Part shown: positions 1,875 to 59,217 of the stretch, in pieces | How the letters are laid out: every line of letters begins with the position of its first letter | Numbering within the stretch: position 1 is the stretch's first letter | Origin: Eledone cirrhosa | Lineage: Eukaryota | Direction of reading: 5' to 3' | Assembly: GCA_964016885.1 (NCBI GenBank) | Contig: OZ024743.1 | Span: 158,596,001-158,660,000, forward strand | DNA length: 64,000 nucleotides | Program-made: the position numbers and the translations under genes | Notes under the pieces: generated by a model | Seen by the model: the letters and a program-made list of their open reading frames with translations, nothing else | Databases searched by the model: none | Told to the model about the DNA's origin: nothing

Positions 1875-3353
1875 ACATCATCATCATCATCATCATCATC
1901 ATCGTTTAACGTCCATTTTCCATGCTAGCATGGGTCTGGACGGGAATTGTCCCCTTGAGGCAAGATTGGTTGTCTTGCTCAGGACTGTCTGGCGGGTTTT
2001 CTACGGCTGGATGCCCTTCCTAACACCAACCACGTTTACAGTGTGGACTGGGAGATTTTTACCGTGTTACCTACACGGCCACATTACAGCGTGGACTGTG
2101 TGTTTTATTGTCGTGACACCTACATGTCTGGCGGGTTTTTTACGGCTGGGTGCCCTTCCTAACAACAACCACATTTACAGTATGTACTGGGAGGTTTTTA
2201 CCGTGTTACCTACACGGCCACATTACAGCGTGGACTGTGTGTTTTTTTGTCGTGACACCTACACGACCTCATTTGTTTCGGACTGGATGTTGTGGCACCA
2301 ACATAATTTCACATTTTAGGGGGTGGTGTGGATGGGGTGGGGGTAGTGGGACGAGGGTGTATTTTGTTAGAGGTGCCTACTGACTGTAGGCGGATCTTCT
2401 GTATAACTGTGTAGCGCCAAAGATCTCGGTCCAGTGACATTGTCTTGGAGAGGTGTAAGTGTGTGAGGTCGGAATTTATCAAGTCGTCCCAGGTTTTTCT
2501 GGGTCTGCCTACTCCGTGGCTACCGTCTATTTTTATCGCCCTGCACTTTTTTATACAGCTGTCTTTCATGTGCATCACGTGACCGTACCAACGTAGTCTT
2601 CTCTCGAGTAAACAACATCTGATCCCTCTTATTCCTAATTTCTTAGTTCATTTATGCTTTGCCATTCACGTATATTACTATTACACATCCAGCGGAGCAT
2701 GCAAGCTTCGTTTCTCTCCAGTCTGCGTATATCCTTTGCACACAATGCCCAGGTCTCACTGCCATGTAACATTGCTGTTCGTATGCAGGCATCTTACAGC
2801 CTGCCTTTCATTTTTAGAGAGAACCCTTTAGCGGCCAATAGTGGTATAAGCTCTCTGAACTTTTTCCATCCTGTTCTGACTCTAGCTACTGTACTTTCAG
2901 AGTACCCTCCTCCACTGCTGATTTTATCACCCAGGTAACGGAAGCTGTCCACTATTTCTATAGAACCATCTGTGCAATGGAATGAGCTAGTATTCTGTGG
3001 GCACTTGCTGCTACTTATTGCACCAGAGCACCGGCCACATATAAAATCTATATTCTTAGTTAGCTTACCTGTGATCCCACTACATCTTTTATGCACCCAT
3101 ACTTTGCATTTGGGACATAAAATGGAGTTTCTGCCTACTCCTTTCCTACACACTGAGCATGGCCATTTCCCAGATGGGACCGGTGCCCTATTTTCCTTCC
3201 TACAAACTAGAACTTTAGTCTTAGACAAGTTAACTAAGGCCTTTTGATTCTAGGCCATGCTTCCATGTTTGGATTTTCTTCTCTAGTTCCGCCATTGATT
3301 CAGCTATGAGTGTTAGATCATCTGCATATAGGAGTTCCCATGGGCAGCCGGTC
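1875..3353 (-). mobile_element. 5'-truncated RTE-clade LINE (RT C-terminus with PHD-like finger, 3' UTR, (GAT)n tail)
   Basis: Minus strand has ELLYADDL, then SKTKVLVC...CSVC...HKRC...CGRC...FRYLGDKISSGGG...ARVRTGWKKFREL, LRWYGHV and GRPRKTW. The tail is (CAT)n on + at ~1876-1902. A ~138-bp tandem duplication lies in the 3' UTR (~1987-2262). Confidence 0.9.
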
Positions 3354-3710
3354 TATGCTAGCTAAATTGAATGTTTGTCATGCTTAATAAAAGTTAGCTA
3401 TTTCTTACCAATCCATACATAAGTTTTATTCTGCATAACTTTTGCACAAAAGAAGGAAACACAAAACTGAAACAAAGAAAACTATACAAACTCAGTATAG
3501 TTGGTGTGCAGCTTTTGATTTTATTCTGTTGGGCTAGGAAATCACTAGTGGTAATGATGGTAAGAGTGTGGCGTATTGTTGTGAGGGAGCTATTGCTTTA
3601 CATTTTACAGTCTTAAAATTAGGAAGGAGACACATTGGATTATACAATCCTTGGAATACTGTTTTGAAGAGAAAAAACAGGCTATATGGTCATGGCTGGG
3701 GTGTCTTTAA

Positions 3711-3907
3711 CCCTTTAGCATTGACATTACTGTTTACTATTATATTTTCACAAATTATCTCGCATAATATTGAATCTATGAGATTTTGATATTATTTATT
3801 TTGAGAACAATACCTTGACATAAGTACGAATGGCTTGTTACAGCCGGTTTGAACAGAAAGAGGTGACAGAATTCTGGCTGGATACGGCCGGTTTACGTGC
3901 TAAAGAG
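3711..3907. mobile_element. piggyBac-type MITE
   Basis: TTAA|CCCTTTAGCA ... TGCTAAAGAG|TTAA: TIRs with 1 mismatch and a TTAA target duplication. It interrupts a copy of the abundant dispersed repeat. Confidence 0.8.
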
Positions 3908-4149
3908 TTAAGCATAGATCTACTAGATCAGGGGTGACCTAGAGATAAATAATAACTTATGATTCATGTTTTTTCTCTGAATTATTTCTTCAGTCTTGGA
4001 GGCAGTAGTACTCATGGTGACATTGTTGTGAGGGAGCCTCTACACAAATCTTTGTGGCACTTTGCTGAACCTGTTTAATTCAGCAGTTAGATCCAGCTTT
4101 AATTAAATTTCTACCCATCTTAGAATACTGGCAAAGTGTACTCATCACT

Positions 4150-4545
4150 CACTCTCATTCTTTGATTCCATTCTGTTCTTATTCTAGCCACTGTGCAATT
4201 AAAGCAACCTCCTCCACTGCTAATTGGGTCAGCTAAGTAACAAAAACTATAAACTACTTCTATAAACCTTCATGGGATTAGAAAATGTTTATTTCATTAA
4301 TGCTCTCACTACCAACTAGTCCAGTACATCTACCACTTACAAAGTTTACCTTTGGTTTTTAAGTTTACTCTAAGCCCTTTTGATCTTAATTTCTGTTTCC
4401 ACAACTGGAATTTCTTCTATGGCCCTTCTTCAGATTCAGCTATAAAAACCAGGTTTCAGCATATATTAAACAGCAGTGGTCTAAGGATGGATCCCTAATG
4501 AACACCTACCTGCACATTGAATTTCTCACTAAACTCATTACCTAT
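4150..4545 (-). mobile_element. Old RTE LINE fragments
   Basis: Minus strand carries degenerate ISSGGGC..TVARIR and NEFSEKFNVQVGVH*GSIL.PLLFNI motifs of the same RTE family. Confidence 0.6.
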
Positions 4546-4774
4546 GTAAAAAAAGTTTGTGATTTCCTTGGTTTTATGAAACTTTTGTTGTGACCCACCA
4601 ACATTTTGTATGAATCACATTGTGCATCACTGATTTAAGGCAGGAGTCCCCAACTTTTTATCACCACAGTCAAAATATATCTCCAGTTTTTTTTAAATAT
4701 TTAAATGAATATCATTTTCCCCAACCATTGGTAAAAATCACTTAGCTTTAATCATTTTTTATTTAGACATAGTG

Positions 4775-5330
4775 TATTTAGGACTACATTATCCAATGTG
4801 TCCTTTTTTAAGAGGTGTGATGTGAGGAAAATTTAGCTGCTGTTTCAAGTTAAGTTGATTGACCATGTAGAGGCTTCCACATGGGGTTGTTGTAGTTCTT
4901 TAATTCCAGGCCAGTCATGATTGAGCACACACACACCTATGATCAAAAGCATTCCAGTCATGACCATCCTATTTCCATTTTTTTCAGTCATTATGTATCT
5001 AGAATTACATTATCCAATATAATGTATTTTTAAAGACAGTATTATGTAACATGGGGAAGATATATCTGTTATTTCTAGTGGGTTGAAGCCTGCATGAAGT
5101 CTTCATTCTTTGTTTTTAATCTCAAGCCAGCCTTGATCAAACAAACCTATAATTAAAAGCATTCCAGCCATAACAATCCTGTCTTTTCCCAGTGTACAGA
5201 GAACCCTAGGCAACATGCTCCAATATGCCCCCCCCCCCTTTTTTTTTTAAAAAGGAAAACAGGATGTGATTTTGAGGGAGATTTGGCTGCTATTTCCAGT
5301 GGGTCTAAAGACTCCTTCATTGGGTCAGGG
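4775..5330 (+). repeat. Cluster of an abundant dispersed repeat (SINE-like), with many further copies across the window
   Basis: Recurring motifs CCTATGATCAAAGGCATTCCAGCCATGACCATCC, GACTACATTATCCAATGTGTCC and GATTTGAGGGAGATTTGGCTGCTATTTCTAG. Also seen near 5.9, 6.7, 8.5, 10.2, 22.2-24.4, 31.0-31.9, 51.9, 52.3, 55.0-56.6 and 57.3 kb. Confidence 0.7.
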
Positions 5331-11257: not shown

Positions 11258-11804
11258 GCTCTAAGTGCTTGGCAAAGATTATTGTGTAGATAATTGTGGC
11301 CTTAGGTGATGTTTATCTCTCCAGGCTTTTGACATACATGACAGATGCTGAGAGATTTATCATGTCTCTATAGAATTATGGCTTCTACAGTGGGTGAAAT
11401 AGGGATGGAAAGTGGGTTGTTGATTATCTTCTTCCTCTTACTGAGGAGCTGAACATTAATATTATGTCAAGGAGCAGGGTGAGGAGGTAGATGAGAGGGG
11501 GGGGGGGGAAAGGGCATGGAGAGAGAGACGGGGGGAGGGGGAGTCCAAGTTCAAGAGAGATGTAATAATACAAAGGAAAATAAGAATTAATAGAGGTGGG
11601 GATTTTTCTAAAGAGAAACCTGATATTTTAGCTTGCAAAATAAGTGTTTTTTATACATATAATACTAAACTTATACTTTCTGATGCACATGTATGTATGT
11701 ATGCATATATATATATGCAAAGGTAAACAGAAATAACAAAGCAAACAACACAGTAAAATGAAGAAATATTTTATTAGTTTTACACTTGATATAGTAGGAA
11801 AAGA

Positions 11805-11838
11805 GTCTTAACGTTTCAGACGCTAGTCCTTCATCAGA
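11805..11838 (-). ncRNA. Minimal Penelope-type hammerhead ribozyme motif (degenerate)
   Basis: Minus strand reads CTGATGA A GGAC TAGC GTCT GAAA CG TT AAGAC. The core is intact and stem II is GGAC/GTCT; stem I is weak and abuts the CR1 insertion. Confidence 0.5.
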
Positions 11839-11841
11839 ATG

Positions 11842-12831
11842 CCACAGTACTGAAATATGCAGATGACATCAAGCTGTACCTTGAAATCAAAAGGACAGAT
11901 CCTGAAATCTATAACTCTTTCCTACAATCAGACCTGGACACAATGCAGCAATGGATCACAGACTGGCAACTGAAGCTGGCTGTGGACAAATGTACCACCA
12001 TGCATTTTGTGAAGAAAAATCCAGCGTCCATTTACTCCCTCCACAACACTGATATCAAGAAGTCCTCTTGTGAATGTGACCTGGGCATTACTTTCAGCAG
12101 CGATTTGCGTTGGACAAAGCACGTCTCTAAAATTGTCAAGAAGGCCGAGGGTGTCTTGGCATCACTCAGCAAAACCTTTGTTAGCCGCTCTCCAGCCATC
12201 TATTTAAAGCTGTATACAGCTATGGTACGACCACACTTGGAATTCGCATCATCAGTTTGGAACTCCTATCTTGCTCAGAACATTGACTTCCTGGAAACTG
12301 TGTTCAGAGACGTGCAACCAAGCGCATACCCTCCATCAAACACCTACCATACTCTAAACGCCTTGCTTCCCTGGGCATGGATTCATTGAAGCTCCGACGT
12401 CTGGCAATGGACTTGGTAAACACCCACAAAGTTATTAACCATCTCGCCAACAACAACCCTGAGCACCTTTTTGATTTCCATGTGTCTAACACACGTAGAC
12501 ATGCCTACAAAATCAGAAAACAGCACAGCTCCCACGACTTTCGGAAACATTTTTTCATGCTTATAGTTGCTGAAGCATGGAACAAACTACCTGTGTCAGT
12601 TGTTAGCTGCTGAGACACTGCATCCTTTAAAACCTCCATGCTTCCCGAAATTCGCCAAAACTACACCTGATGTCCCCCTTCCATACACATGCACACATGT
12701 GTATATCATGACTCATGCACTGTTCATTTTCCTGACGTTTGTACATTACCCTATGTACTATACATACACTTTTGATGAGTTGTAGTGCACCTGAGCACTG
12801 TACACAATATTTTCATTATTATTATTAAGAT
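11842..12831 (+). mobile_element. 5'-truncated CR1-group LINE (RT C-terminus, 3' UTR, (ATT)n tail)
   Basis: LKYADDIKLY...LQSDLD...DLGITFSSDLRWTKHV...LYTAMVRPHLEFASSVW...AWNKLP. (ATT)n tail at ~12815-12826. Possible AGAATG TSD at 11836-11841 and 12832-12837. Confidence 0.9.
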
Positions 12832-12922: not shown

Positions 12923-13263
12923 AATAAACGTATATTTTATCTTGTTAAATAAATATAACAAATGCAAAGAATGTCCTTCCATGCCTCTGGAACATATCTT
13001 AAACATTGGAAATTTAAGATGTTAACTAACTCCAGTGTATCTGAAATTTTATTGATTATCATTTTTTTTCATCACAATGCTTCTATGTACAATTTAAAAA
13101 AAATAAAACAACCCCCTAATAAGGAAAAATTTTGTCTTATTTTCAAAATGTTTTTCATTTTTGAAAATGTTAATTTTTTTTTAATTTAAATTTATATAGA
13201 AGAAATCTGTGTATTGTTTTATTTTCACAAAAAATCTAAGAATTATTTCCAATATTGTTTCAG

Positions 13264-13360
13264 AATAAAAGAGGAAAATAGACGACTGCTGAAAGAGAAG
13301 GTTGAAAATGAACAGTTAATTAAACTTCTGGAAACTGAGAAAGAGGTTTTAACCAAAAAT
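13264..13360 (+). CDS. Internal coding exon A of a long coiled-coil protein (IKEENRRLLKEKVENEQLIKLLETEKEVLTKN)
   Basis: TTGTTTCAG acceptor and GTAAGA donor; open E/K/L-rich heptad frame; ends in phase 0, compatible with the next exon. The upstream exon was not found in the window. Confidence 0.85.
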
Positions 13361-13440
13361 GTAAGAAGGAAATTTCCTATTTCTATATTCTAATGTGCTA
13401 ATAAATATTGCCTGTACAAGTAAACAAAGTGTATACATTA

Positions 13441-13452
13441 TTTTGGGACACC

Positions 13453-13457
<5 letters not shown>
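13441..13457. mobile_element. Single Tc1/mariner-type TIR end
   Basis: TTTTGGGACACCCTG|TA, the reverse complement of TA|CAGGGTGTCCCAAAA, followed by (TA)n; no partner end found. Confidence 0.5.
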
Positions 13458-13490
<33 letters not shown>

Positions 13491-13958
13491 TCACAAACAT
13501 TTTTTTGAACCACGCCACCTATATCCACAAAACGTAAAAACACCACACACACGTGCGTACCCCCACATAGATACATACTCACCCTCCGAAACCCTCCCCC
13601 ACCCCTCTGACCCCGCTCCATACACACGCACACAACACCGACCTACACCCCACCCCACACACACCTTTTCCTGAACATGGAACCTCGTTCTTCCCCCAAC
13701 TCTCACATACACACACCTACACACATACACCACCTTCAGCCCTCACCGCTCGGACACCCCGCCTCCCTCTCCCCACTCCACCTGCCACCGCCCCTACACC
13801 CCCACACCCTTCCACCACTTGTTTATCTTCATGTTTATTTTTATTTTTATTATTTTTATTTTTATTTTGTACCCCTTCCACCCCCCCCTTTTTTTTTTCT
13901 AAATGTCTCTCCTCCACTCCCCTACACCCTCGGAACTCTCTTCCCACCCACTTTTCGC

Positions 13959-13984
13959 CCGAAGAAGAGCTTATGCCCGAAACG
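13959..13984 (+). ncRNA. Degenerate Penelope-type hammerhead motif
   Basis: CCGAAGA A GAGC TTAT GCCC GAAA CG equals CTGAAGA A GAGC TTAT GCTC GAAACG with two T>C changes; probably inactive. Confidence 0.4.
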
Positions 13985-14071
13985 CCCCCCCCCCCACTCT
14001 CAAGAGCGTGAAACTAATAAACCTTTGTTCGTACTGCCTCTCTGTTTAGTTCCCGTTCCATTTTTCACTAT

Positions 14072-14703
14072 AATTTAAGTAAGAAAAAAAATTTTTAAAA
14101 ATTTTTTTAAAAAAATATTTTCTTATTTTACGTCCTTTATATTATTGTTCTGCATTCTCCTGCATTGAACCACCTAGGTACTATGACATAACCTGTGTAT
14201 TTGCTGGCATGGGCGTACATCTGTGCGCTTATGTTAGTTGATATATTAAATTATCTATATTTATCTCCAATTCACTGATTTGTCGAGCAAACTTGTCAAA
14301 ACCACTTCTAAAAAAATTTTTTTTTTTTTGGGGTGTTAGTAGGCGTCAGTCATCTTACCATCCCATTCCTTCTAACTAGCCTCTGTGTCACGTGATTGAT
14401 TCTTTAGAATCGGCCATTTGACTTGAAGCAGTGAGAATTTCGGTACATAGAATCCAGTCCTCGCAAGCTGTTCGATCTACCGAATTATTATTATTTTTAT
14501 ATGAGCCGCCAGTGTCCGCGCATTGCCTGGAGACTTAACTGAGAATAGACTTCCTGATGACGCAATGAATTCTCGACAGTTGGATTACGTAACTGTCTTT
14601 ATCCCATTGCAGAAACTAATTAGTTGGAGTGAAAATTTAAGTAAGAAAAAAATTTTTTTTAAATTTTTTTAAAAAAATATTTTCTTATTTTACGTCCTTT
14701 ATA
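14072..14703 (+). mobile_element. ~562-bp hammerhead-bearing unit with ~70-bp terminal direct repeat (PLE pseudo-LTR or retrozyme-like)
   Basis: AATTTAAGTAAGAAAAAAAATTTTT...TATTTTCTTATTTTACGTCCTTTATAT occurs at 14072-14142 and again at 14634-14703. The hammerhead ends just before the second copy, which is followed by (TA)n. Confidence 0.7.
14549..14630 (+). ncRNA. Type I hammerhead ribozyme with extended stem II (HHR-A)
   Basis: Stem I ACTTC/GGAGT; CTGATGA at 14554-14560; stem II GCAATG/CATTGC enclosing hairpin GACAGTT/AACTGTC; GAAA at 14612-14615; palindromic stem III CTAATTAG; GUU triplet. Confidence 0.75.
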
Positions 14704-14765
14704 TATATATATATGTAGATAAATCTACCAAGAGTTTACGGTAGTGTCCAATCCGTATGAAGAAC

Positions 14766-14948
14766 TCATAGAGTGTGCTCAAAAGAGCCACCCCTTATCA
14801 AAATAATAGAAATGAATGTAGATTATGTTCCCAAGAACTATTTGAAATAATGAAATCTAAGGATATCCTATTAAATAAACGACAGGAATTAATTATATCG
14901 TGTAATCATAAACTAAAAAAAACATTTAAATATTATAAACCTAATTAA
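14766..14948 (+). mobile_element. C-terminal GIY-YIG fragment of a Penelope-like element (Naiad-like)
   Basis: *SVLKRATPYQNNRNECRLCSQELFEIMKSKDILLNKRQELIISCNHKLKKTFKYYKPN* matches the W.IL..A.PY...C.LC..E...LLNKR.E....C.H C-terminus of this PLE group. Confidence 0.75.
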
Positions 14949-15448
14949 TAACATTATTTTAGAAATTAATATATAATTTAATTTAAATGTTAGTTAACCT
15001 ATAAATTTAATTTAATTAAAATTCTACTACAGATGAGAATATAAAATATTGTGTAATCATAAATTGTGAAAAACCTTTAAATATTACTAATATATACTTA
15101 GTAATTTAATTTATAGATTAATTTTAATTTATTTAACCCTTTATTAAAATTCCTTTACAGATAAAATATAACAAAATATCGTGTATCCAATGACAGAGAA
15201 ATAATTTTTAGTATTATAGACCTAATTAATATACATTTTAGAAATGTATTTATAATTTGGTTTTAAATTTAGTCAACCTAAAAATTTAATTTGATTGGCT
15301 TAAAATTAGTATCCTAATACAGACGGATTGCAGAGTGTCATGTAATCATAGAATGGGATGTGTTTTGGATGTATACCTAGTTAATATATTCTTTGCAATT
15401 TTTGAAAAAATATGTATATGTATGTATGTATATGTATGTATGTATGTA

Positions 15449-15479
<31 letters not shown>

Positions 15480-15865
15480 GTGTATGTATATGTATATGTA
15501 TTAATTTTGATTTCTATTTTGCATATAATTATATTCTGCTATTGATAAAATACAATATCTGTTTTATTTATTGTATACCTAATTAACATATACTATAGAA
15601 ATTAATATATAATTTTTAATTTAGTTAACCTATAATTTATATTCTACTACCGATGTAATACTTTATTTGTTTTTTCCCTATTACTAAATTCATTTCCTAA
15701 TATTGATACCATAACGTTAATAACTTTAATTTAGTTATACTATAATTAATACTCTACTACTATTTAACTTCAAAATTCTGCTTCAAATATTATAAACCTA
15801 ACTAATTTACACCTTAGAAAGCAATATGTTAACTATCTTTAGTTTAGTTAACATATAATTAATGG
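14880..15865 (+). repeat. Degenerate AT-rich tandem repeats (~130-150-bp unit) following the PLE ORF end
   Basis: Recurring ACAGA...GTGTAATCATA...TATTATAAACCTAATTAA...TTAGAAATTAATATA...TTAGTTAACCTATAA motifs, roughly 6 copies. Confidence 0.65.
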
Positions 15866-16049
15866 TATACTTATTTTGAAATGCATAATTTTGCCTTATT
15901 TCTTGCATTTCCTAACACTGAAACTATGTAAAAACATATATTGAGATCCAAATACAGATTAATATTCTATGTTTCTTGAAACATATATTTACTATAATCC
16001 CCTTCTCAACCCCCCCCCCCCTTTCCCCCATACTATTATCATCTGTGTT

Positions 16050-16211
16050 TGTAAGCGTGTATGTATGAATATATATGTAGGTAGGTGTATATATGTTTGG
16101 GTGTTTATATCTGAGTATAAAAATACATATATGCACATGCAAATAAGAATGTATGATTGTGTGTATATATATATGTGTATATATATATATGTGTATATAT
16201 GCATGTGTATA

Positions 16212-16242
<31 letters not shown>

Positions 16243-16273
16243 GTGTATATGTGTATATGTGTGTGGGCGTGTA

Positions 16274-16306
<33 letters not shown>

Positions 16307-18186
16307 GTGTGTATGTATGTGTATGTATATATGTGTATGTATATGTATGTCACTCTATATATATGTCTATCTTCGTATCTATGTGGGTATATGTGTGTAT
16401 GTACATGTATGCACATGTATATGTTTATGGGTATATGTGTGTATGTGTATATATGTACGTGTGCGCACATATATATGTGAGTGTGTGTGTGTGTGTGTAT
16501 ATATATATATGTATATCTATGTGTGTATATATATATATTCGTATGTGTATATATATATATTATTTATTATTGTAATATTTATTATTATAATATGACATGT
16601 GTATATGTATATATGTGAAGGTGTGTATGTGTATATATATGTATATATATATGTAAAAATATATATGTGTATGTGTGTTTTTGTGTGTGTGTATATATAT
16701 GTATATATGTGTGTATGTATGTGTTTGTATGTGTGTTTATGGTTGTATGTGTGTATGGGTATATATATAAATGTATGTGTATATATATATATATATGTGT
16801 ATATGTATCTCTATTAATGTGTGTATATATGTATATGTATATACCTTTTTCTTTGTATGTCTGAGTTGTGTGAGAGTGTAGTGGTGTTTGTATGTATATA
16901 CGCATATATGGATGCGTATGTATTTGTATATATGCGTATATGTAAGTGCGTATGTGTGTATGAATATATATCTATGTCTATGTATGAGTATGTATGTGTG
17001 TGTATGTATGTGTGTGTGTATGTATGTATGTGTGTATGTGTGTATATATATATATATATATGTGTGTATATGTATGTATGTATGTGTATGTATGTACATA
17101 TATGTGTATGTATATGTGTATATATATATATGTGTATATATGTATATATATATGTATATGTTTATTTTATATATATATGTGTGTGTGTGTATGTGTGTGT
17201 ATATATATCTTTATATATGTGTATGTGTATGTTTGTGTAGGTGTGTGTGTGTGTGTGACTATATATGTATGTGTGTATGTGTGTATGTATGTATGTGTAT
17301 GTGTGTGTAAGAGTCAATGGCCATCCAAAATCACCGGGAGAGATGACCCCTTAGCCTTTGTCAAGGCAGAATTCTAGGAGAAGGAAAACTCTGATATAAC
17401 ACCTGCAACCCTGATGGTATCCAATGATGTTGACTTGTTCTTCTTTTTGGTAAATATCATCTTGGTTAAGAGAGTGGGACTGGCTTTGTGCAGTGCCTTT
17501 GCTCACTATAAAAGCTTCACGGCACAGGCATTGCTTTATATCTGGAGATCTCTCTGCACTTGTCGTCACATGGTACCATGGGCCCAGCACTATGTGTCAG
17601 TAATTGTCACAAGTGTAGTGTTTGTACCAGAGTTTTCAAGTCGCTGGCTGGACTAAAAAGTCACACTCGTTCAGCGCATCGGTAGGGGTTCTCCTACATG
17701 GATATAAAGTAGTGGCCGTACTCGAAAACGAGTTGGCAGCCACCATATATATATATGTATATATATATATATATGTATATGTATCTCTATTTGTATGTGT
17801 TATGTGTATATGTATATACCTTTTTCTTTGTATGTCTGAGTTGTGTGAGAGTGTAGTGGTGTTTGTATGTATATACCGATATATGGATGCGTAAGTATTT
17901 GTATATATGCGTATATATAAGTACGTATGTGTGGGTGAATATATATCTATGTCTATGTATGAGTATGTATGTGTGTGTATGTATGTGTATATGTGTGTAT
18001 GTATGTATGTATGTCTGTATGTATATGTGTGTATATATATGTATGTATGTGTATGTCTGTATGTATATAAGTATGTATGTGTATGTATATGTGCATGTAT
18101 GTGTATATATATATGTGTGTCTATATATGTGTGTGTGTATATATGTGTATATATTGTATATATGTGTGTATATATATATATATGTA

Positions 18187-18217
<31 letters not shown>

Positions 18218-18260
18218 GTATATGTTTATATATGTGTGTGTGTGTGTGTTGTATGTGTAG

Positions 18261-18300
<40 letters not shown>
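16050..18300. repeat. Compound (TA)/(TG)/(TATG) microsatellite block with internal duplication
   Basis: Direct inspection; source of many spurious Y/I/C/V/M ORFs. Confidence 0.95.
17309..17745 (+). mobile_element. Short non-autonomous RTE-derived element (5' end plus 3' C2H2 end)
   Basis: The 5' part has GGAGAAGGAAAACTCTGA, similar to RTE 5' UTRs. The 3' part encodes CHKCSVCTRVFKSLAGLKSHTRSAHR*, a C-terminal C2H2 finger seen in RTE-type LINEs. Confidence 0.55.
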
Positions 18301-18304
<4 letters not shown>

Positions 18305-18914
18305 TTGATATATTTCTTTTTTCTTTTTCTTTTTCTTTTCTTTTCTTTTTATTTCTAAGTTTATAGATACATCTATAAATAAGCAGTCTGCCCAATCCGT
18401 TGAATACTGACCTCTCCCCCCCCCCTCCCACCTAATTTCTGTATCTTGATCTAAATGTGTGTGGCAGTGTTTATGTGAGTGAATTAATATCCATGTGCTT
18501 ATGATAATATTATATCCACATATATATGTGTGTGGGGGTGTGTGTGTGTATGTATGTTCGTAATTATGTGTATGTTTATGCATATACGCGCGCGTGTCTG
18601 TGGGTGTACGGATATGTGTGAGTATGAGAATATGTGTATACACTTATTTCATATTTATGTGTCTATACGCATTTTATCTGTGGATTTAAACTTACAGAGA
18701 CATTAGCCTTGAATTTTTGTATTTGCATACATCTTTTTGGCATGCGTATGCATGTTGAGCATATATCTTTGTATAAATATGTGTACGGGGTTAGTTACAT
18801 GTATATACACACACAAAACTGCATAAAACTTTTTGTATTTTCATTGGTCAATTTTGAACTCCGTTCCCAAACTGACCTGAAATTTTGAATTGTTGTTATT
18901 ATCAATAAATATAT

Positions 18915-19059
18915 TTCATTATTTCTGAAGACGGCATATATGTGTGTTTGGTATGTATATTTAATCTTGATAGTTTGTATAATTTTGTACATAGATCTGT
19001 TGAATATGCATGCCAATTCTAACACATATATATCCTAGAAACGATCGTTAAATAATGAA
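18915..19059 (+). ncRNA. Type I hammerhead ribozyme with ~106-nt stem-loop II (HHR-B)
   Basis: Perfect 10-bp stem I TTCATTATTT/AAATAATGAA; CTGAAGA at 18925-18931; stem II ATATATGTGTGTT/AACACATATATAT and TGGTATGTATATTTAA/TTGAATATGCATGCCA (G-U pairs); GAAA at 19038-19041; palindromic stem III CGATCG; GUU triplet. Confidence 0.85.
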
Positions 19060-19133
19060 CTTTTTTTGTTTAATATAAGGAACTGTTTCATTGTTTTATT
19101 CATTATTTGTTTTATATATATATATATATATAT

Positions 19134-19461
19134 ATACGATATTAACAAATGGAAACTATATTTATAAAACCATATTTATTTCATTATACATATTTCAAGG
19201 GCACCAAGTTAAATTATGGTGTGCTTTCATCAGACAAAATATAATATAGATCAGTTTTATAAATAAATATTGACATACCCTTAAAAAATGCAACCATTAC
19301 TGTTCCAACAGTAATGGTATGTCAATATTTATTTATAAAACTGATCTATATTATATTTTGTCTGATGAAAGCACACCATAATTTAACTTGGTGTTCTTGA
19401 AATATGTATAATGAAATAAATATGGTTTTATAAATATAGTTTCCATCTGTTAATATCGTAT
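19134..19461. repeat. 146-bp near-perfect inverted repeat (19134-19279 / 19316-19461) with nested central hairpin; inverted PLE pLTR
   Basis: The arms are reverse complements with about 3 mismatches. The spacer contains ACCATTACTGTT-CC-AACAGTAATGGT. The whole insertion (19134-19548) is flanked by (TA)n. Confidence 0.95.
19354..19418 (+). ncRNA. Type I hammerhead motif (HHR-C); mirror copy on - strand at 19177-19241
   Basis: Stem I TATTTTGT/ATGAAATA (G-U pairs); CTGATGA at 19362-19368; stem II AAGCACACCA/TGGTGTTCTT; GAAA at 19399-19402; stem III TATGTA; AUA triplet. Confidence 0.7.
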
Positions 19462-19545
19462 GTTTACTCCAAATACTTGTTGAGTGCTTTATATCAGTTA
19501 TAAAAATATTTGTTTGTTGTATCCCAACAATTTAAATAGAACTTT

Positions 19546-19576
<31 letters not shown>

Positions 19577-19589
19577 TTCGTATTTCTAA

Positions 19590-20240
19590 AGAAACACAGT
19601 TTTAGGAAGCCGTAGCTATGCAAACACTGGGGCTAACGTCCTCTGGTCGTGTCCAGCAGAAGCAAGGGGGACAACCGTCCACTACATGGATTGACTCTTT
19701 GCCTCTGGCTCATAGGGATGAACACAACATTCATCCTGAGTTAGGAAACATTCAAGGAAACCAGCCAGATCTGTCTCAACCAGTATCAGAATTTCCCCTG
19801 ATATGATCAGCCTGGTGAGCTTTTGATCACTGAGCAGAAACCTTTGTCATGCCAAGTTCATTGTGCAGAATATTTTCAACTTTTTCATGGGATATGGTAA
19901 TAGCACTGGTTATTTGATTTATAGTCAATTGCCTGTCATCCATCACACTGTGGTGAACATGATCAATGTTTTCCTCTGTATTGCAGGACTTCTAAAACTT
20001 TGGTAATCTTTAAGACTTTCCCTTCCCATCCTAAATTCAGCTACCCACTTTAGCACTGTTGACAAAACTGGAGTGTCATCCCCTAATGTAGCAACTATGT
20101 CAGCATGAATGTCTTTGGGGTCTAAACCCTTTCTCTCAAGTACTTGATAACACCACAACACCAAAATTTGTCCATTTTCAAGAGAAGGTCATCATGGGTT
20201 ACTTTTAAAGCCTTCTTTGAACAGTCAGATGTCAGTTTAT
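19590..20240 (-). mobile_element. Mariner transposase remnant
   Basis: KGLDPKDIHADIVATLGDDTPVLSTVLKWVAEFRMGRESLKD (mariner HTH), ENILHNELGMTKVSA and QDECCVHPYEPEAKSQSM (DETW..YEPE.K.QS motif), with frameshifts. Confidence 0.85.
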
Positions 20241-20279
20241 CTGGAAAGAAACAATGCAGTTATTAATAAGAATAGATGA

Positions 20280-20515
20280 AATTATATATATGGATGATGT
20301 TCGCTGGCTGAAGAAGTGCCAGGGCATCCCAGTAGAAGGAAGCCATAGTAGAGATAGATAAAGAAATACCTTAATAGATGTGGTGAGCATTGATCTCAAG
20401 TTTCGAGCCTCACAGGGGAGATGACAAACAAGACAAGTGGAGAGATGCTGTGTTGAAAAGGACACATCTAACCCATGCATGTGGAAAAATTGACCTAAAA
20501 ATGATAATGTTGATG
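20280..20515 (+). mobile_element. RTE 3'-end fragment (similar fragments at ~52020-52215 and ~62085-62440)
   Basis: Degenerate KKC...VEG...GRP.K.W coding end plus the AACCCATGC...TGGAAAA...GATGATGAT terminus. Confidence 0.65.
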
Positions 20516-21693
20516 ATACAGTCCTTGGTTGAAGAGTTTAATGCAAGATTTGGATGTGAGGCAGTGTAGGGGATGGGTGAAAGATAAAAACGCAGCTACA
20601 TCAAATTGACCTGGGGTTCAGTTGGTAGACGTACTTTGTTGCCTTGGCTGACTTTAGTAGAGTTTACCCTGTTGCAAACATTATAACCAGGACTTGTCTT
20701 TAGAATAAGCTTCTTTCCTTTCCACCATCATATAAGACTTGAAAAGCATCTTGGATACTACCCTTCTACCACTGACTAAGCCATGAAAATAGACACACAT
20801 ACATATCACCTGCCAAATAATAGAAAATATATATAAAGGAACCTATGTGGATGGCTTTTTGGGGAGATGTAATAGTTAAAAGAGCAAACACTATGCAATC
20901 TATTGTATTAATTTTAGTTGTCTACCTACATGCTCTGAGTTCAAATCCCACCAAGGTCAATAGTAGTTAAGGGCCCATAGGCTTGGAATAGTTATAGAAT
21001 ATCCATGTATGTTGCAGCAGCTCATCCTTGTATTTTAATCTATGTTAGGCATGTGCTATGTTGAAGTATTTTCTGATTTTGAATAGGAAACCTTACAAAT
21101 ATCATATTGAATAGAGATATTTATCTTTCATATGTTTAACACCCTGAGAAACCCTTGAAAATACTCCCTCTCTCTCATCCACACACAGTACTTATGTACT
21201 TACATACATATATGCACATATATACATACCTCCAATCAATTAGTGGTACAGTGTGGATTTGTAAAACATTCCAAAGATTCTCTCTTTGAGTTCCCATATC
21301 TGTAGAATCACTTATGTCCATACAAAGACACACACGTACGCATGCACACGCACACACACACAAACACACATACATGGAAAGTAATATCCATTATAAAGAG
21401 ACATGTGTATTCATTACATGAGTGCATGGACATTCACATGAACTCCTACATATACACATAACAGGAATTCATATCACATGTATTCACAAATCCCTGAAAC
21501 TGTCTTCATTGAAACAAAAATATCTTCTCACTTTGTTTAGCGACAAGGTTTGAATTCCATGAAGAAGAATTTAAATAAATCTTATCGAAAATGCACACAC
21601 ATACACACACATTCACGCACACACACACACATCATTTATACGCATATATTTATATGTATACACACATATCATATATACTCACATGGCTTAGAT

Positions 21694-21840
21694 GGAGGCA
21701 CATGGCTTAGTGGTTAGAGCATTGGCCTTGCAATCGAAAGGTTGTGAGTTCAATTCTCAGACCGGGTGGTGTGTTGTTTCCTTGAGCAAGACACTTTATT
21801 TCACATTGCTCCAGTTTACTCAGCTGTAAAAATGAGATGA
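21694..21840 (+). mobile_element. tRNA-derived SINE, family B (other copies ~29291-29570 +, ~57445-57782 -, ~59695-60025 +)
   Basis: A-box TGGCTTAGTGG, B-box GAGTTCAATTC, body GTGTCCTTGAGCAAGACACTTTATTTCAC...CTCAGCTGTAAAAATGAG. Confidence 0.8.
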
Positions 21841-22470
21841 TAGGGACTGAGTCCTTATCATTCCACTGCAAAGTGGTCGTGTAGGTGCCACGGCAAAAAA
21901 GCACCCAGCACTCACTGTAAATAAGGTTGGTGTTAGGAAGGGCATCCAGCTGTAGAAATCAAGCCAGAATCAGTTCCTGTCCCACCCTTGCAAGCAGGGA
22001 AAAGTGGACGTAAAATGATGATGATGATGATGATGATACACACACATGCATACATATGTACATACATATATACACACACATGTACTCACAAAAATATTGA
22101 ATTTCTAATTCTGCTTACGCTGGCAAGAAATTTGTTTACCCATTTTTGTTGCGGAAGTCTTGTTGTTTAGCCACAGGTTGGTTCTGATTGAGAAAACTTA
22201 CGATAAAAAAAAGTTCCATCTGTGACCATCCTACCTTTTTCTAGGCACGTTATTCATTGTTTTCCCATCTTTAAAAGAGTTGGGTATGATTTGAGTAAAT
22301 TTGGCTGCTGTTTCTAATGAGTCAAGTGACCAATGCAAATGTTTCCTCTTTCTGTTGAGTTGATTTATAGACATTTCTTGAGATTTCTGGAGATTGACAG
22401 AGATTTTCATCTTTGTCACCAGAAATCAAATCATATGTCATACATAAAATTTCTCTGTTTAATTATTCAG

Positions 22471-22605
22471 ACAAATCAGGAGATCAAGAGTAACCAGAAA
22501 GACATTGCCAAAATGGAGGTGGATTTGGATCAGGCTAACCAAATGAACAAAGAACTCAAAGTGGCAAATGAAGTCCTTACTGAGAAAATTAATGAATCTC
22601 AAAAT
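22471..22605 (+). CDS. Coding exon B (TNQEIKSNQKDIAKMEVDLDQANQMNKELKVANEVLTEKINESQN)
   Basis: TTATTCAG acceptor, phase 0; a frame-compatible end requires the GC donor GCAAGT at 22606. Confidence 0.85.
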
Positions 22606-24436
22606 GCAAGTAGTTTTGTCATTTTTTTTACATTGTTTTTAACACTTTAACTATCTCACTGGTTTCTTAATTAGAATGTATTATCAACTGATGCATTTGT
22701 ATGAGTTGTCACTGTTGTTGCATTTTGCCTTTTAGCCTCAGGTCTGCCTAAACTGAACAGATTTGTGGTCAAGAGGATTCCACTCATTACTATCCGATTT
22801 GTTTTTTAGGTTTAGTGATTGCAAGACAACATCCTTCTATTGAGAGAGATTTGATTCCTATTTTTAACAGTGCTTGATTCGTGTTTTTACATAGCTGGGT
22901 ACTTTTTTTATTCATTAGCTTCTATAACATATGCTTTTACCATGATTCATTGAAATATTTAAGAACTGACCTGTTGTTTAAACCCATTTCAGTCTTGATT
23001 GAGGAGAATTATGACCAAAGGAATTCCAGCCTTGGCAATTCTGTCATTTTAGCTGTATCCAGGATTATCCTATAGCATATGCCCTTTCCTTTTTAAGAGA
23101 GTAGTATATAATTTCAGGAAGCTTTTACTAGCAGGTTAGACAACCAGATAGAGGCTCCAGTTTGTGTGAGTTGCTGGCACACGTAATTTCAGCTATGTTA
23201 CCAGACTTCAGCCTTCATCAAGCAGACTTATAATGAAAGGCGTTCTAGCCTTGATAGCCATGTCTTTTTTGTGTATACAAGACTACATTGCCTAATGTGT
23301 CTTCCTTTGTTTTTCATCCTTTCCTTACCTTATCTCTAATGAAATACATTGTTTCAATTAATTTTGAAAATAATCAAAAATTTTGGAGGGTTTAGTAAAT
23401 TAACTAAGATCTTCATTATTATGTCTGTGTTTGGAATACATCATAACAAAAAGTTTTCACATAAAATTATGAAGGATGGTTATATATTACCCTTTTTCAT
23501 ACCAGTCAACCTACTCTGGTTCTATGATAAAAATCTCTTAGAAAAGTATATATTTTCCTAAATCCTTTTGTAATTATTTCCAAAATTAATAGAAACACAG
23601 AAATTATGTAACAAATTTTCTCACGGAAGTGAGACATTAAAATGAGTATTTTGGTATTATGTAGAACCAGAGATATTCTTAGATATGTTTTGATTGTAGG
23701 TTTTGAAAGAGATTTAGCTGCAATTCTTCGTAGGGTGAATGACTGCAGAAAGATATCCTTGTTAGATCACAAGACCAAACTTGATATAAATAAACACTTT
23801 CTCTATCTCTGTAAACAATTTTTATACCATAGAACTGTTAGAGTGTATTTCTCTTTATAATTCTTTTGATAACCCATCTAAGACCACAGCTGGATCTACA
23901 AGCTGACAAGGGAGCCTTTATTTAGTCACTCAACCTGCTTGAAAAATCAGACAAATCTCCTTCAAATCACCATCTGAGCATCTTTAAAAAAAGCACACAT
24001 TGAATGCTACGGTTCTGGCTTCTGTGTGTATACAAAAAAAAGCTGGATGGTCAAGGCTGGAATGCCTTTGATCATAAGCCTGCTTGACCAGGGCTGCTAT
24101 ATCTAGCAGGTGGGGTGAAGGCTCCTGTACTGGTTTGATTTCACTTTGGCTCATTTAGTTCTACTTTAAATCCAATAGATTGTGATCCAAGGAAAGAATC
24201 TCTACAGGGTCAATTTGACTTGTTAGAATTAGCACACAACTCTTGAATCAAACCATACCTTATTAAAAAAAGGAATGATATATTATACTGTGTAGTTCAG
24301 CACAAAAAAGCAGATGTTAAAGGATGATGATGGTCATAATTGGAATACCTTTTATCACAGGGCTGTTAATTCAGGGCTATCTTAACAAGAACAAAACTAA
24401 CAATAAAATCTGATTGTTTTATTTCTTTTTTTATAG

Positions 24437-25199: not shown

Positions 25200-27387
25200 C
25201 CCTTAAACATTTAAACCGGCCATATCCAGCCAGAATTCTCTCACCTCTTTCCGTTCAATCTGGTTATAACTGGTCATTCACCACATTGAGTTCTGAAACT
25301 AAACAATAAGATCATCAAAGTTTTGTAGATTTGAGATTATGTGAGTTCAAGCCTCTACTGTGAATATACAATAGTAAATATAGTGAAACTTGTGATAACA
25401 TGTTATTTTAACATTAGAAGTTAGATTGATTTTTTTTTTGTGCTCATCAATATGGCTGCTGAAAGTATTTATACCGACTTTGAAGGTTTTACTCAGGAAT
25501 AGTAAGATCATCAAAGTTTTGTAGATTTGAGATTATGTGAGTTCAAGCCTCTACTGTGAATATACAATAGTAAATATAGTGAAACTTGTGATAACATGTT
25601 ATTTTAACATTAGAAGTTAGATTGATTTTTTTTTTGTGCTCATCAATATGGCTGCTGAAAGTATTTATACCGACTTTGAAGGTTTTACTCAGGAATACTT
25701 ACAAAATGAAGAAGAAGAAAAAAAGAGAGAAGAAAATAACCAATTTTTCTTCAAATAAATTGGATATATATATTTCTGAATTTTCATCCAATGATGATTA
25801 TTTTCATATTGAAAGTAAAGATTTCCAGGACATCATTGAGAATATGACAGCGACTTGGTCGAAGAACACAACACCAATATATATTCTTGATTTCATTGAA
25901 AAAAAACTGGTCCACAACACAGTCTACTTCCCAATGCTCAACCACTGGATTATTTTGTTTTGTTTTTGCCACAGACTTTCTTCAAAGCCATGGCAGAAGA
26001 GACAAATTGGTATGACCAATAAACTATTTCTTTTTGAGGAAGACCTGATCTATTATGGCAACCAACAGACACTGGAAATTTGAGCATTTTTTAATAATAA
26101 ATATTATGTTTGGTATGATTACTGGAGCCAGGATATAAGGTATGGTGCCCTGTATATATCAAGCATTATGCCTAAAACCAAGTTTTTGTTCCTGGCTGAC
26201 CCCCCTCCTCCTCCGTAGGAATGAAAAAAATCATGATCCTCAATATAAAGTTTGCCCAATGCTTGATTTATTGTCTGAGAAATTTAAAAATGTCTATGTA
26301 CCTGGAAAAAGTCTATGTTGATGAAGTGGTGACTGGCTATAAGGGTAGGGTACGTTTCCGACAATATATGCCAGTTAAGCCCACAAAATGGGGCATCAAA
26401 GGTGTGGGGTGTTTGTGAATCAGACACAGGCTACTGGGCAAAAACAACAACAAAAAAAAACTGCAGTGAGACAAAATGGATTGGTCTCTGACTGAACCCT
26501 TCCATTTTCAACACAGACATGTATTTTTCAACCGTTTTTTTTCTTCAGTGCTTCTGGCAGAGCATCTTGCCCTTGTAAACACATACACCTGCAATAGAAT
26601 AATGGGCATTTGCAAAGGGTTACTCCAAGAAATAAAGAGGGAATATTCTCCGGGAGCAAAAAGAAAACATGTTAGCCACAACATACAGGGGAAAACAACA
26701 AATTTTATTTTTGTCTTCAAATCAATAACCAGATGTCAGGGCTGAATGTAAACCCTTAGTAAATATTTCCTACAATAAATACATTGGTGGAATCGACAAA
26801 TCCTAGCAGTATTGTGCATACTACGCAGTTGGATGTCCTAGAAAGAAATGGTGGAGATATATTTTGTGGATTTTAGTGAATTAAACCATTGTGAATTCAT
26901 TAAAAGCCACAAGGATTGGCCACCACCAAAAGATTTCTGCCACATGAAATTTTGTGTAGATATTGCATCAAAGCTACATGGAGGGTACACTTCCTGCAAA
27001 CACAGAGCTGGGAGAAATTCAAAACTAACTCAAGTAGATGTCAACAGAGAAAATATTGATTTTCATAAGATAGAAAAAGTCAATGGGAGGATTAAAGTTT
27101 TCAGAATGAGTTCCTTGTAAAGGGGAAAAACTTGTAAAGTGTCATTATGCTTTGCTCAATTTCATGACAGAAATATTGCCTAACAATATTAATTATGCTG
27201 TTGAAAAGAAAATAATTATTTGAACACAAATTATATGCAAAAACCAGAAATATGTATTGATTTTCTGCATGTAAACACCATTATTCACCTGTGTCACACC
27301 TGTTAATTAACTTTTTTTATTGGGGCACACATTGTTATGTACACCTACTCAGTTCATTGTGTAAGAGTATATTGCCTAGTAAAAGGG
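25200..27387 (+). mobile_element. Degenerate piggyBac transposon (PGBD4-like transposase remnant)
   Basis: Starts TTAA|CCCTT. Motifs PLDYFVLFLPQTFFKAMAEETNWY, VDE...YKGRVRFRQYMPVKPTKWGIK, HVFFNRFFSS and YNKYIGGIDK...KKWWRY are present. The right end AAAAGGG|TTTTA is uncertain. Confidence 0.85.
25307..25697 (+). repeat. Near-identical 196-bp tandem duplication (25307-25502 / 25503-25697)
   Basis: TAAGATCATCAAAGTTTTGTAG...GGTTTTACTCAGGAATA is repeated head-to-tail. Confidence 0.95.
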
Positions 27388-41166: not shown

Positions 41167-43467
41167 TTGTTTCTTTTATTTGCCACCAGGGCATCAAAAG
41201 TGGGACAAGTACAATGGGGGGAGTTTACAAAACAAGGTGTCCTCAATAAGGAGGAGGCAATAACAATATATAAAAATAAAATAAAATATAACAAAAAATA
41301 AAATTTATAACAAAGTCCTCAATAGAGAGGAGGCGCCTTGGGAGGTCGCACACACCCCCGAAAAAAGTGTGCAACCCTTCTCCTCAGGAGCACAGAGAAG
41401 GGGTGCTCCCTTGGTCTTTCATCTTCCTCACCTATAGTCTGATGTAGAGTGAAGGCCCATTCACACGGGCCATTCTCGCCACTTTCACCCATCTTTCATA
41501 GAAACGGCTGGGGTGCAGCACCTCTCTCTCCATCCTGATCCTTCTTCCGAAATGATATCGGAAGAAACGGACCAGTCGTTGGCCAGAGAGAAAGGTGTCT
41601 GACCTCAGTCCTTTCAGATGCGTCCACCATACAACCTCTTTCGCCATGGCTATTACGCACAGAAACACCGCCTCTCCTTCGTTTTTGAAGAGGGGAGGCG
41701 GCTTGATCGTTACAATAGACTCGGTGGTCAACCGGATCGGTCCCACCCTTGACAGCAGTTGTTCGACATAGCCCCACAGATCGGCAATGCCCAAGCAGTG
41801 TACCAATGCGTGTGCAACGGTTTCCTCATCGCACACGCATCTGGGACAGATCTTTTTCGATGGGTCCCTACCCGGGCGCCCGTGTCTGTAGAGCCTTTCT
41901 CGAATGGTGAGACGAGTCTGGGAAAGGCTCGCCTCACAAACGGGGCCCACACCGGTTGACCGGAGAGGAATACCTGTAGGTGCCGTAGCCTTAATGTGTG
42001 TTTACTATCATCAGCCACGGCATCCCCAGCCCTCCTTTCGAAGGGTGTTGACAGCAGATGGATCTCCTCACTATAGGAGCCCGCTTCTTCCAAAGGAATT
42101 GGAAGAGTGCGCGCTCCATTTTGGCGAGCGTTTCCCTTGGGCAAGGCACAACGGTCTGGCGGTAGTAGATGACGGACGCTATATAAGTGTTCGCCACCTC
42201 CGCCCGACCTTTCAGGGACAGTTTGCACTCGGCCCACTTCTGGGTCAGTGAAAACACCCTGTTTGTCACCTCACCCCAGTTCTTCTCCACCTGGAGGTCT
42301 GGTCCGAACCAGACCCTGAGCAACTTCACCGGGCCCCCCGTCCAGCGCCCGACGACGCCATCGGAGGGCATCGATCTGCCCCTCCACGTGCCGAGTTGCA
42401 GACCGATCAACTTGTCCCGGTTCAGCTTAGCCCCTGTAAACCTTTCGTACTCCTCCAGTAAGGTGTCGATCGCCCCGATTTCCGAGGCCGTCGACACCAT
42501 TACTGTCACATCATCGGCGTAGGCTGACACCGCTTTCCGCAATCCCGGTTCCAACGGGATGCCCTGCAACAACTCCAACTTCCGCAGCAGTGGCTCTAGA
42601 GTCATTACATACAGAAGGGAGGAGAGAGAGCACCCCTGTCGGATGGACCGCGCGATTTCGAACGGCTCCGAGAGGTAGCCGTTCACCTTGACCCTAGAGC
42701 AGATGTGGCTGCTGTGCATGGCATTGATCCAGCCCCTGAAAACGGGTCCGAAGCCTGCCGCCGCTAGCACCGCATCCAGGTAACCATGGTCGACCCTATC
42801 GAATGCCTTAGATTGATCCAAGATGATCAGGGCCCCACCAAAGCCGGGTTCGTTCCCAACCCTCTCTATGATGTATCGCATGAGGTGGAGGTTATCGTGG
42901 ATGGACCTGGACGGGATAGCACATGTCTGCGCATCTCCCACCAGGTTGCCCACGACAAGCGCCAACCTCTTTGCTAGCACCTTGGCCAAAATCTGTAACT
43001 CTGTATTTAGCAGAGTTATGGGCCTGAAATTATTTATATCGTCCCCCTTGTTCTCGTCCTTCCTCACTAGCGTGACTACGCCCTTGGTCACAGCACAAGG
43101 AATTCTCCCGTTCTGTTGCCAGTTGCAGTAGACCGCCTCGAGGAGATCGGGGAACAAGTCCGGCATAGCTAGATATAGTTCGTATGGAAGACCATCGAGA
43201 CCCGGGGATTTGCGTTTGCCGCATTGGCTCAGCACGTCCTCTATCTCAGCGGCTGAAATCGGCTCCTCGCAGGACTTCGCTTCCCTGTCCGAGAGACGCG
43301 GCAGGCCGTCGAGGTATGGACCGAAGTCCACGTCCCCAACCGGCCCCCCGCCCCCTCCGAACAATCCGGCAAAGTGCTTTTGAAAAGCCTCACACATCTG
43401 CTTAGGTTCAAGGATCACCCGTCCATCCTGGTCTCGCAAAGACCGGATAGTGGATCTGCTCCCTCTT
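41167..43467 (-). mobile_element. 5'-truncated L1/Tx1-clade LINE with 482-aa RT ORF and C-terminal CCHC finger
   Basis: ORF 41991-43439 contains KSPGLDG, RPITLLN, LDQSKAFDRV, RQGCSLS and AYADD; downstream CPRCVCDEETVAHALVHC. A-rich 3' end. GC-rich relative to the host sequence. Confidence 0.92.
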
Positions 43468-58915: not shown

Positions 58916-59217
58916 TGAAACTATATAAGCAGAACAAAAAAAAAAATATATATATCAATGAACATTATTAAACAGTTGAAATATTTTACTTATCACACTC
59001 AATTTTCAAAGGAAAATAATTGTATATAAAAAAGGAAACAAACAAAAGATGGCCACCATGCAGCAGATCCACTTTTTGCAAGTTCTACACCACCTCTTAC
59101 CTCAGTGTCTCATCCCTACCCCTCAGGTTTCACCCATTCTACTTATCACACATTGCCCCTTTCCCCACAATCTCAATGTGGTTTTCATCATTTTTCTTCT
59201 AACCATTACCTTGGCAG

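Follow-up and report, generated by a model that had tools for sequence, protein, structure and literature searches.

A nest of hammerhead-bearing insertions in an intron of Eledone cirrhosa and the Penelope-like junction signature of a non-coding retrozyme

What brings several hammerhead ribozymes together within a few kilobases of one intron, and which enzyme placed them there, is the question raised by positions 13456 to 19576 (the nest) of a 64,000-nt stretch (the window) of the 3.0-Gb genome of Eledone cirrhosa. Comparison with related copies in the genome, whose loci are given L-numbers below, indicated that the nest is a stack of four hammerhead-bearing insertions: three (A, D and E) belong to coding families of Penelope-like elements (PLEs), and the fourth (B) is a non-coding 560-bp retrozyme. 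We hold this explanation, mobilisation by PLEs included, with good confidence.

A type I hammerhead descriptor run over the whole window gave exactly three matches, all on the + strand, with cores at 14554, 18925 and 19362. Shuffling gave an expectation of 0.4 matches for the whole window, and 200 block-wise dinucleotide shuffles of the nest region gave a mean of 0.015. The original prediction, made from the sequence of this region, had listed five hammerhead motifs and all of them are present: three are full type I motifs, one is inverted (minus strand) and the one at 13959 is decayed. The positions it gave for the full motifs (14549, 18915 and 19354) mark where stem I begins and not the cores, and its position for the minus-strand motif, 19177, is the far end of a motif whose core lies at 19233 and escapes the descriptor because of extra mismatches in stem II. 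Its cleavage positions (14625, 19049 and 19410) agree with the cuts predicted here. The inverted repeat it described was recovered as 19129-19283/19312-19466 (155 nt, 96% identity), and its direct repeat proved to be the terminal redundancy of a 1.1-unit tandem element. The (TA)n tracts were also located, at 13456-13485 ((TA)15, the left edge of the nest), about 14700-14715, 19114-19136 (between D and E) and 19549-19576 ((TA)14, the right edge). The GIY-YIG C-terminus it reported is in frame; it had been taken as a module separate from the 18925 ribozyme, but both belong to one element, D. A fifth insert at 17308-17745 was missing from the list. Rfam hammerhead models, suggested as a check, gave no match above the gathering threshold in the window or in four family loci, and none at E<=10 in 13000-20000. 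Rfam microRNA matches were dismissed as TA/TG repeats, and the scans returned no other credible Rfam family.

Module B (14073-14700, + strand) consists of 1.1 units of a tandem retrozyme of about 560 bp, is one-armed and has the short 3′ end of its family. Its type I hammerhead (14549-14630, core 14554, predicted cut after 14625) has a C10.1-A11.1 mismatch, a 51-nt stem II arm, a palindromic stem III and, in the standard hammerhead numbering, a U at position 17, which goes with weaker activity. CpG decay of this copy as the source of the mismatch and of U17 was rejected, both being family-wide; U17 was found at 30 of 30 B loci and at 20 of 30 D loci. The idea of a new ribozyme core was dropped too, as U-U and C-A mismatches and a U at the cut site occur in known PLEs according to file S2 of PMC8557442.

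Genomic copies of B numbered 189 matches at 97-100% identity in 40 scored candidates. The monomers (542-571 bp) are arranged in tandem, each with one type I hammerhead, and diverged subfamilies align across the whole monomer. The longest ATG frame is 79 amino acids, the GC content is 36%, and no B copy examined runs on into an open reading frame (ORF). No long terminal repeat (LTR) structure was seen, primer-binding site and polypurine tract not having been searched for. A B-type pattern matched the genome 10,175 times and its reversed control not once. Conservation of the core in the B-type set, and in the D-type set below, is by construction because the patterns fix the cores; the stems were left free. 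Stem covariation among genomic copies was found: in 22 distinct B-type ribozymes of 31, 94.5% of cells were paired (36-48% in slid controls), and compensatory cells numbered 60 against 21 in shuffles, a test that the relatedness of the sequences inflates.

B resembles animal non-LTR retrozymes as these are described (Cervera and de la Pena 2020, PMC7229834; Li, Clavereau and Pollet 2026 preprint) in consisting of tandem units that code for nothing and each carry one type I hammerhead, in a GC content under 45%, in forming dimers to long multimers and in co-occurring with PLEs. Its monomer of 540-570 bp lies outside the 150-450 bp given for those elements, and the C10.1-A11.1 mismatch, U17 and 51-nt stem II arm are particular to B. 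Published retrozymes are expressed, cleave themselves and accumulate as circular RNA, a form that is putative for B. We found neither strict (TA)n targeting nor inverted two-armed arrays nor a pair of fixed ends in the accessible portions of the published retrozyme accounts, and the literature searched, subscription journals and preprint supplements aside, held no description of inverted, two-ended retrozyme arrays.

The junctions of B set it beside the coding elements. Downstream of the ribozyme, each of B, D and E has a short and a long 3′ end, both at fixed positions, and in their inverted arms the 3′ ends point outward. Thirty-seven B arrays were recovered whole from clusters of listed matches; 24 were two-armed, every one of which paired a short with a long end, and 13, among them the complex L166, were scored as one-armed. 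Of 61 B 3′ ends, 58 enter (TA)n. In a second B set of 24 insertions, taken in chromosome order and including subfamilies to about 66% identity (by eye), 12 of 15 two-armed insertions were short plus long and three were unresolved. All eight two-armed insertions of D, and the window copy, had one short and one long end, and the D 3′ ends at all 30 loci run into (TA)n. For E, seven of eight other two-armed loci were long plus short and one was unresolved, with a query biased to long ends; the window copy has both ends as well, and 30 of 31 long ends enter (TA)n. The template at the junctions itself reads TA, TAT or TATAT. The four families have no common sequence apart from one 37-nt simple repeat, and genome-wide the 3′ ends of A, B, D and E all enter (TA)n, which bears out the earlier proposal that unrelated PLE and retrozyme families target such tracts.

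An inverted 5′-truncated copy with a tail at one end is a hallmark of PLEs in the account of PMC8557442, and the tail is placed between two internal start sites of reverse transcription in that of PMC11167929. Because B has the same one-short-one-long (TA)n junctions as D and E, we infer that B is reverse transcribed by a PLE protein and that its arrays form at integration; all four insertions were likely placed by PLE reverse transcriptase-endonuclease proteins. In such an event a (TA)n tract would be cut on both strands by the GIY-YIG domain. The free 3′ ends would each prime reverse transcription at one of two fixed positions within the template, a short way downstream of the ribozyme cut, and the two cDNAs would join at their 5′ ends. 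Each insertion would leave (TA)n on both sides, so that the site stays a target and nests grow; the present nest would have grown from one original (TA)n tract. The template of B would probably be a circular or tandem RNA produced by ribozyme cleavage, which a borrowed, probably Hydra-type, enzyme would read round several times, so that arrays are made at integration. The ribozymes would be of use to the elements, probably by acting as dimers within tandem transcripts. The Poseidon PLE of Anolis, as reported in vitro (Frangieh et al. 2024, PMC11167929), is alike in its AT-rich target and in two internal start sites that bound the tail; the cutting and extension of both DNA strands there may be likened to the two-armed insertions here, which are known from sequence. 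In Poseidon both sites are used on both strands, whereas here each arm of a two-armed insertion uses one, and Poseidon needs no target homology, whereas the junctions here fall where TA to TATAT is read in the template. Only tentatively do we go further: in a genome with on the order of a quarter million hammerheads, B may be a parasite of Hydra PLEs that exists as circular RNA and is actively spreading; a single PLE dimer may prime both strands of a cut (TA)n at two different fixed sites of one RNA circle and run around that circle, writing each inverted array in one event.

Several points weigh against mobilisation of B by a PLE in this manner. The 37 arrays are the best-scoring and youngest ones, one B insertion (L231) is possibly long plus long, and A was never seen with two distinct ends. 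The sole PLE studied in vitro is reported to start reverse transcription without target homology (PMC11167929), whereas short TA microhomologies occur here. Several B arrays have substitutions in some units only (four of seven in L148), which fits later mutation or a multimeric template. B has no detectable sequence shared with A, D or E that would point to a parent or a helper family, and for that reason its helper is read from the junction signature alone; a Neptune or Naiad protein could serve.

Arrays of this kind might also be satellites without an RNA intermediate of their own that, once a PLE end had inserted, grew in place through slippage or unequal crossover, which is the scenario proposed for vertebrate retrozymes in a recent preprint (bioRxiv 10.64898/2026.07.22.740005). 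Variants private to one B array, which speak for arrays made at integration, sit in every full unit in seven arrays, and in L132 (12 units) and L147 they span both arms; local growth would likewise spread private variants within an arm. Against it, the 37 dispersed arrays each have new junctions with (TA)n, made at the same two positions of the template, with variable 5′ truncation and unequal arms, no examined copy continues into an ORF, and even diverged subfamilies align over the whole monomer. We consider local growth an unlikely origin of the arrays, and some later local expansion may have taken place. Long interspersed nuclear elements (LINEs) have been named as candidate movers of retrozymes (PMC7229834) and their remnants are abundant in the window; B could in principle have been moved by a LINE or another non-PLE enzyme, its nesting in (TA)n being mere insertion tolerance of simple repeats. 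That B lacks a poly(A) tail, has two fixed internal 3′ ends and points them outward in inverted arms exactly as D and E do makes such a mover very improbable. The distribution of (TA)n speaks against mere tolerance as well: a (TA)6 lies within 300 nt downstream of 15 of 17 ribozymes in control stretches of the genome, against 21% of random positions.

Module D (14771-19113, + strand) is 5′-truncated inside the GIY-YIG domain and has the short 3′ end. It is preceded by an inverted stub (14715-14768, minus strand) with the long ('tail') 3′ end, matching the D terminal tail at 97-100% in eight loci. The ORF's C-terminus (CRLC..E, LNKR..CNH) was read by in-frame translation at about 14766-14944, and the type I hammerhead (18915-19059, core 18925, predicted cut after 19049) has a 10-bp stem I, a 106-nt stem II arm (116 in most close copies), a palindromic stem III and U17, with a folding z of -5.98. 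A D-type pattern matched the genome 11,113 times, its reversed control 0 times. Eight two-armed relatives revealed that the GIY-YIG piece, the 3′ untranslated region (UTR) of about 3.7 kb and the 18925 ribozyme are one element with 14715-14768 as its inverted tail, and the window copy is colinear with full copies L091-L100, which carry reverse transcriptase (RT) and endonuclease (EN). D has a single ORF, RT followed by a C-terminal GIY-YIG (frames of L092, L098 and L100; YIG motif), and a Pfam search of the PLE frames was without match. A DNA transposon with long inverted repeats was considered for D and rejected in view of the RT ORF and the variable truncation. In L092 the long end of D continues through to the 5′ UTR and the start codon, so the template is tandem or circular. 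The 3′ UTR (window 14950-19049) has three degenerate repeats of about 150 bp past the stop codon and kilobases of TATG/TG repeats that are 91-97% kept between copies; in this way D itself would seed both microsatellites and fresh (TA)n targets. Some inverted D insertions (L243/L244, L248/L249 and L259/L260) are very short, just 150-170 bp separating their two ribozymes.

Module E is the 3′ end of a second family of this kind. It comprises an inverted arm with the short 3′ end (19137-19303, minus strand, hammerhead core 19233) and a direct arm with the long 3′ end (19304-19548, + strand, core 19362, predicted cut after 19410), and it is continuous with a 588-aa Hydra-type frame in L197. A stand-alone retrozyme was rejected for E, which continues into this PLE ORF. 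The RTs of D and E are 47% identical over 243 aa. D has the N-terminal motifs RRVRWRAY (K to R in RWK) and HSDKTGN in L092; both have the CxCX5C linker (CNCRNKANC in D, CNCRNKSNC in E) and CxxC/CxH (CRLC..E/CNH and CDLC..E/CRH) with no CCHH, one Cys being lost in copy L098. By these motifs D and E are Hydra-clade PLEs, the assignment of E resting on the linker and EN motifs, as its longest recovered copy, L197, begins after the RWK/DKT region.

The Hydra clade of C-terminal EN+ PLEs includes Hydra-1_Obim of Octopus bimaculoides (Craig et al. 2021, PMC8557442). In the account given there, its members agree with D and E in an ORF of RT plus GIY-YIG, DKT, the CxCX5C linker, CxxC and CxH around E and N, insertion into (TA)n, a 3′ type I hammerhead with palindromic stem III, and an inverted 5′-truncated copy with a one-sided tail. 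Section 11 and files S1 and S2 of that paper describe Hydra PLEs as inserting in (TA)n and bearing hammerheads that often show a mismatched pair where stem II begins, as well as a U at the cut site. D, at a full length of about 6.4 kb with its microsatellite-rich 3′ UTR of about 3.7 kb, and E, with a UTR of about 1.7 kb, differ from the published Hydra elements, which are generally under 3 kb, a typical and not a defining trait. The stem II arm of D is 106-116 nt against 80-100 nt in all for the published motifs, the tails of D and E are about 90-140 nt against 30-40 nt, and RWR replaces RWK in D. These long-UTR Hydra elements are new variants of a known PLE type.

Module A (13486-14068, + strand) is a 5′-truncated 3′ end for which 40 matches were scored of 2139 candidates. 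Its longer copies extend into an RT frame (AMGTRMGPNYAN, YIDD) and into a GIY-YIG that has a CxxxxCxxC linker, which is why a stand-alone retrozyme was rejected here too, and Neptune-type motifs (RT, linker and C-terminal GIY-YIG) were read in the frameshifted L193. By resemblance to the alignment in the Craig supplement, A looks Neptune-like, its RT and linker resembling those of Neptune-type PLEs. All 28 anchored copies (29 by eye) have their 3′ ends in (TA)n at one position. The minimal hammerhead of the window copy (13959-13985, + strand), compared with 29 copies, is broken at three points (U4C, one stem II pair lost and no U16.1), whereas most copies of the family retain CTGAAGA and 15 of 29 have GAAACGT. 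It is like the minimal PLE hammerheads described by Cervera and de la Pena (2014, PMC4209133) in its 4-bp stem II, in a base left unpaired after position 9 and in a palindromic stem III of minimal size; it differs from them in these three breaks and in a stem I that is non-canonical family-wide. One locus obtained for family A, L190, has at 2481-5000 what we take, by their motifs, to be Helitron-like helicase frames. The fifth insert, module X (17308-17745), is a 5′-clipped piece of a separate non-coding repeat of about 690 bp inserted into the D UTR. It has no hammerhead core and no Rfam match, its copies are 92-99% identical with one fixed end at TA/TATG repeats, and a tandem dimer lies in L191 (4608-5965, reverse numbering); it is possibly another microsatellite-targeting passenger.

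The nest had been regarded as a ribozyme-rich island, and locally it does stand out: the rest of the window has 0 descriptor matches and 70 kb of neighbouring sequence has three. In the genome it is ordinary. Twenty control stretches of 10 kb, hand-picked at round-number coordinates on six large contigs, gave 17 matches in 200 kb against two in ten shuffles of the same 200 kb, and at least three hammerheads were found in three of the 20 (3, 4 and 5). By rough extrapolation the genome holds about 250,000 hammerhead motifs, a figure made uncertain by the clumping of the matches and the hand-picking of the stretches. Fixed co-mobilisation of the modules was rejected, as foreign ribozymes near A, B and D occur at 0.8-0.9 per 10 kb, equal to controls; E, at 2.45 per 10 kb, is the sole family above them. 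Dozens of distinct hammerhead families with varied stem III palindromes were noted in L168-L187 and L001-L130; the stem II base is C-A or U-U in several of them, and together they would make rich material for covariation.

That the nest lies in a host intron was correctly predicted. The exon 5′ of it (13264-13360, + strand, with AG/GT ends) encodes part of a coiled-coil protein and matches octopod proteins P0002-P0004 at 76-78% identity by tblastn; + strand exons at 13264-13360, 24437, 35380, 48140 and beyond match the same proteins in order, and a downstream exon used as query retrieves octopod proteins. The next exon (22471-22605, + strand) was recognised by eye from its translation match to P0003 between the flanking exons. 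It seems to end at a GC donor (22605-22611; GC-AG intron), and its frame joins the 24437 exon as in P0003. By exon order against P0003 the intron spans 13361-22470 (9.1 kb, + strand); the nest occupies 6.1 kb of it, starting 95 nt past the donor. A Pfam search with the coiled-coil protein gave no family match. A minimal PLE-type hammerhead (11770-11850, minus strand, core 11837) that the earlier list lacks lies upstream of the nest, in antisense orientation to the host gene, and has similar copies in several loci. The window also holds LINE reverse transcriptase remnants at 41432-43499 (minus), 2309-3249 (minus) and 11790-12613 (+), the longest a 502-aa frame, as well as a perfect tandem duplication of 196 bp and a long (TGTTG)n-type array (25307-25697 and 58161-58917).

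As the nest lies in the intron of a + strand gene, the three full ribozymes are sense to the pre-mRNA, as had been stated, and the original prediction saw in this a possible co-transcriptional self-cleavage of the intron; such cleavage might affect splicing or output of the gene. Their cores lie 1.2-6 kb from the donor, B and D monomers can form stems III of 3 bp and 2 bp, transcription through long B arrays elsewhere would supply dimers, and an intronic ribozyme of mammals is reported to have a regulatory effect (PMC10919898). Nearest-neighbour folding, which includes no tertiary contacts, points the other way. E follows its own complement in a predicted 155-bp hairpin of -233.7 kcal/mol, and its ribozyme helices have a probability of 0.0 once the upstream inverted arm is included. 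For B and D the stem III probability is 0.10-0.25 and that of stem I is 0.0 in context; their palindromes pair with themselves at -9.0 and -10.0 kcal/mol against 0.0 for cross pairs, and both are single U17 copies here. The ribozyme of A is broken. Related systems give little encouragement as reported: a minimal PLE ribozyme did not cleave as a monomer (PMC4209133), an anole PLE ribozyme needed the PLE protein (PMC11167929) and eight of nine Xenopus retrozyme dimers stayed uncleaved (bioRxiv 10.64898/2026.07.22.740005). The inserts are 97-100% identical to dispersed copies, so that they give no sign of locus-specific conservation. We therefore doubt that the host transcript is cut to any effect. 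Monomers of B or D may cleave slowly, and the ribozymes in this intron are probably passengers.

Both the nest and its host are of kinds already known, and neither the nest nor its intronic position is of much importance in itself. What is new is a retrozyme with a strict PLE junction signature. Both PMC7229834 and the 2026 preprint name as open questions by what enzyme non-LTR retrozymes of animals are moved and whether the arrays form during insertion or afterwards. B gives junction-level evidence on that question and names two exact template positions, while the one-short-one-long rule constrains how PLEs build inverted insertions. If the circular-RNA parasite proposed here is real, the rule would reveal an asymmetric architecture of PLE integration and would settle which enzyme moves animal retrozymes.

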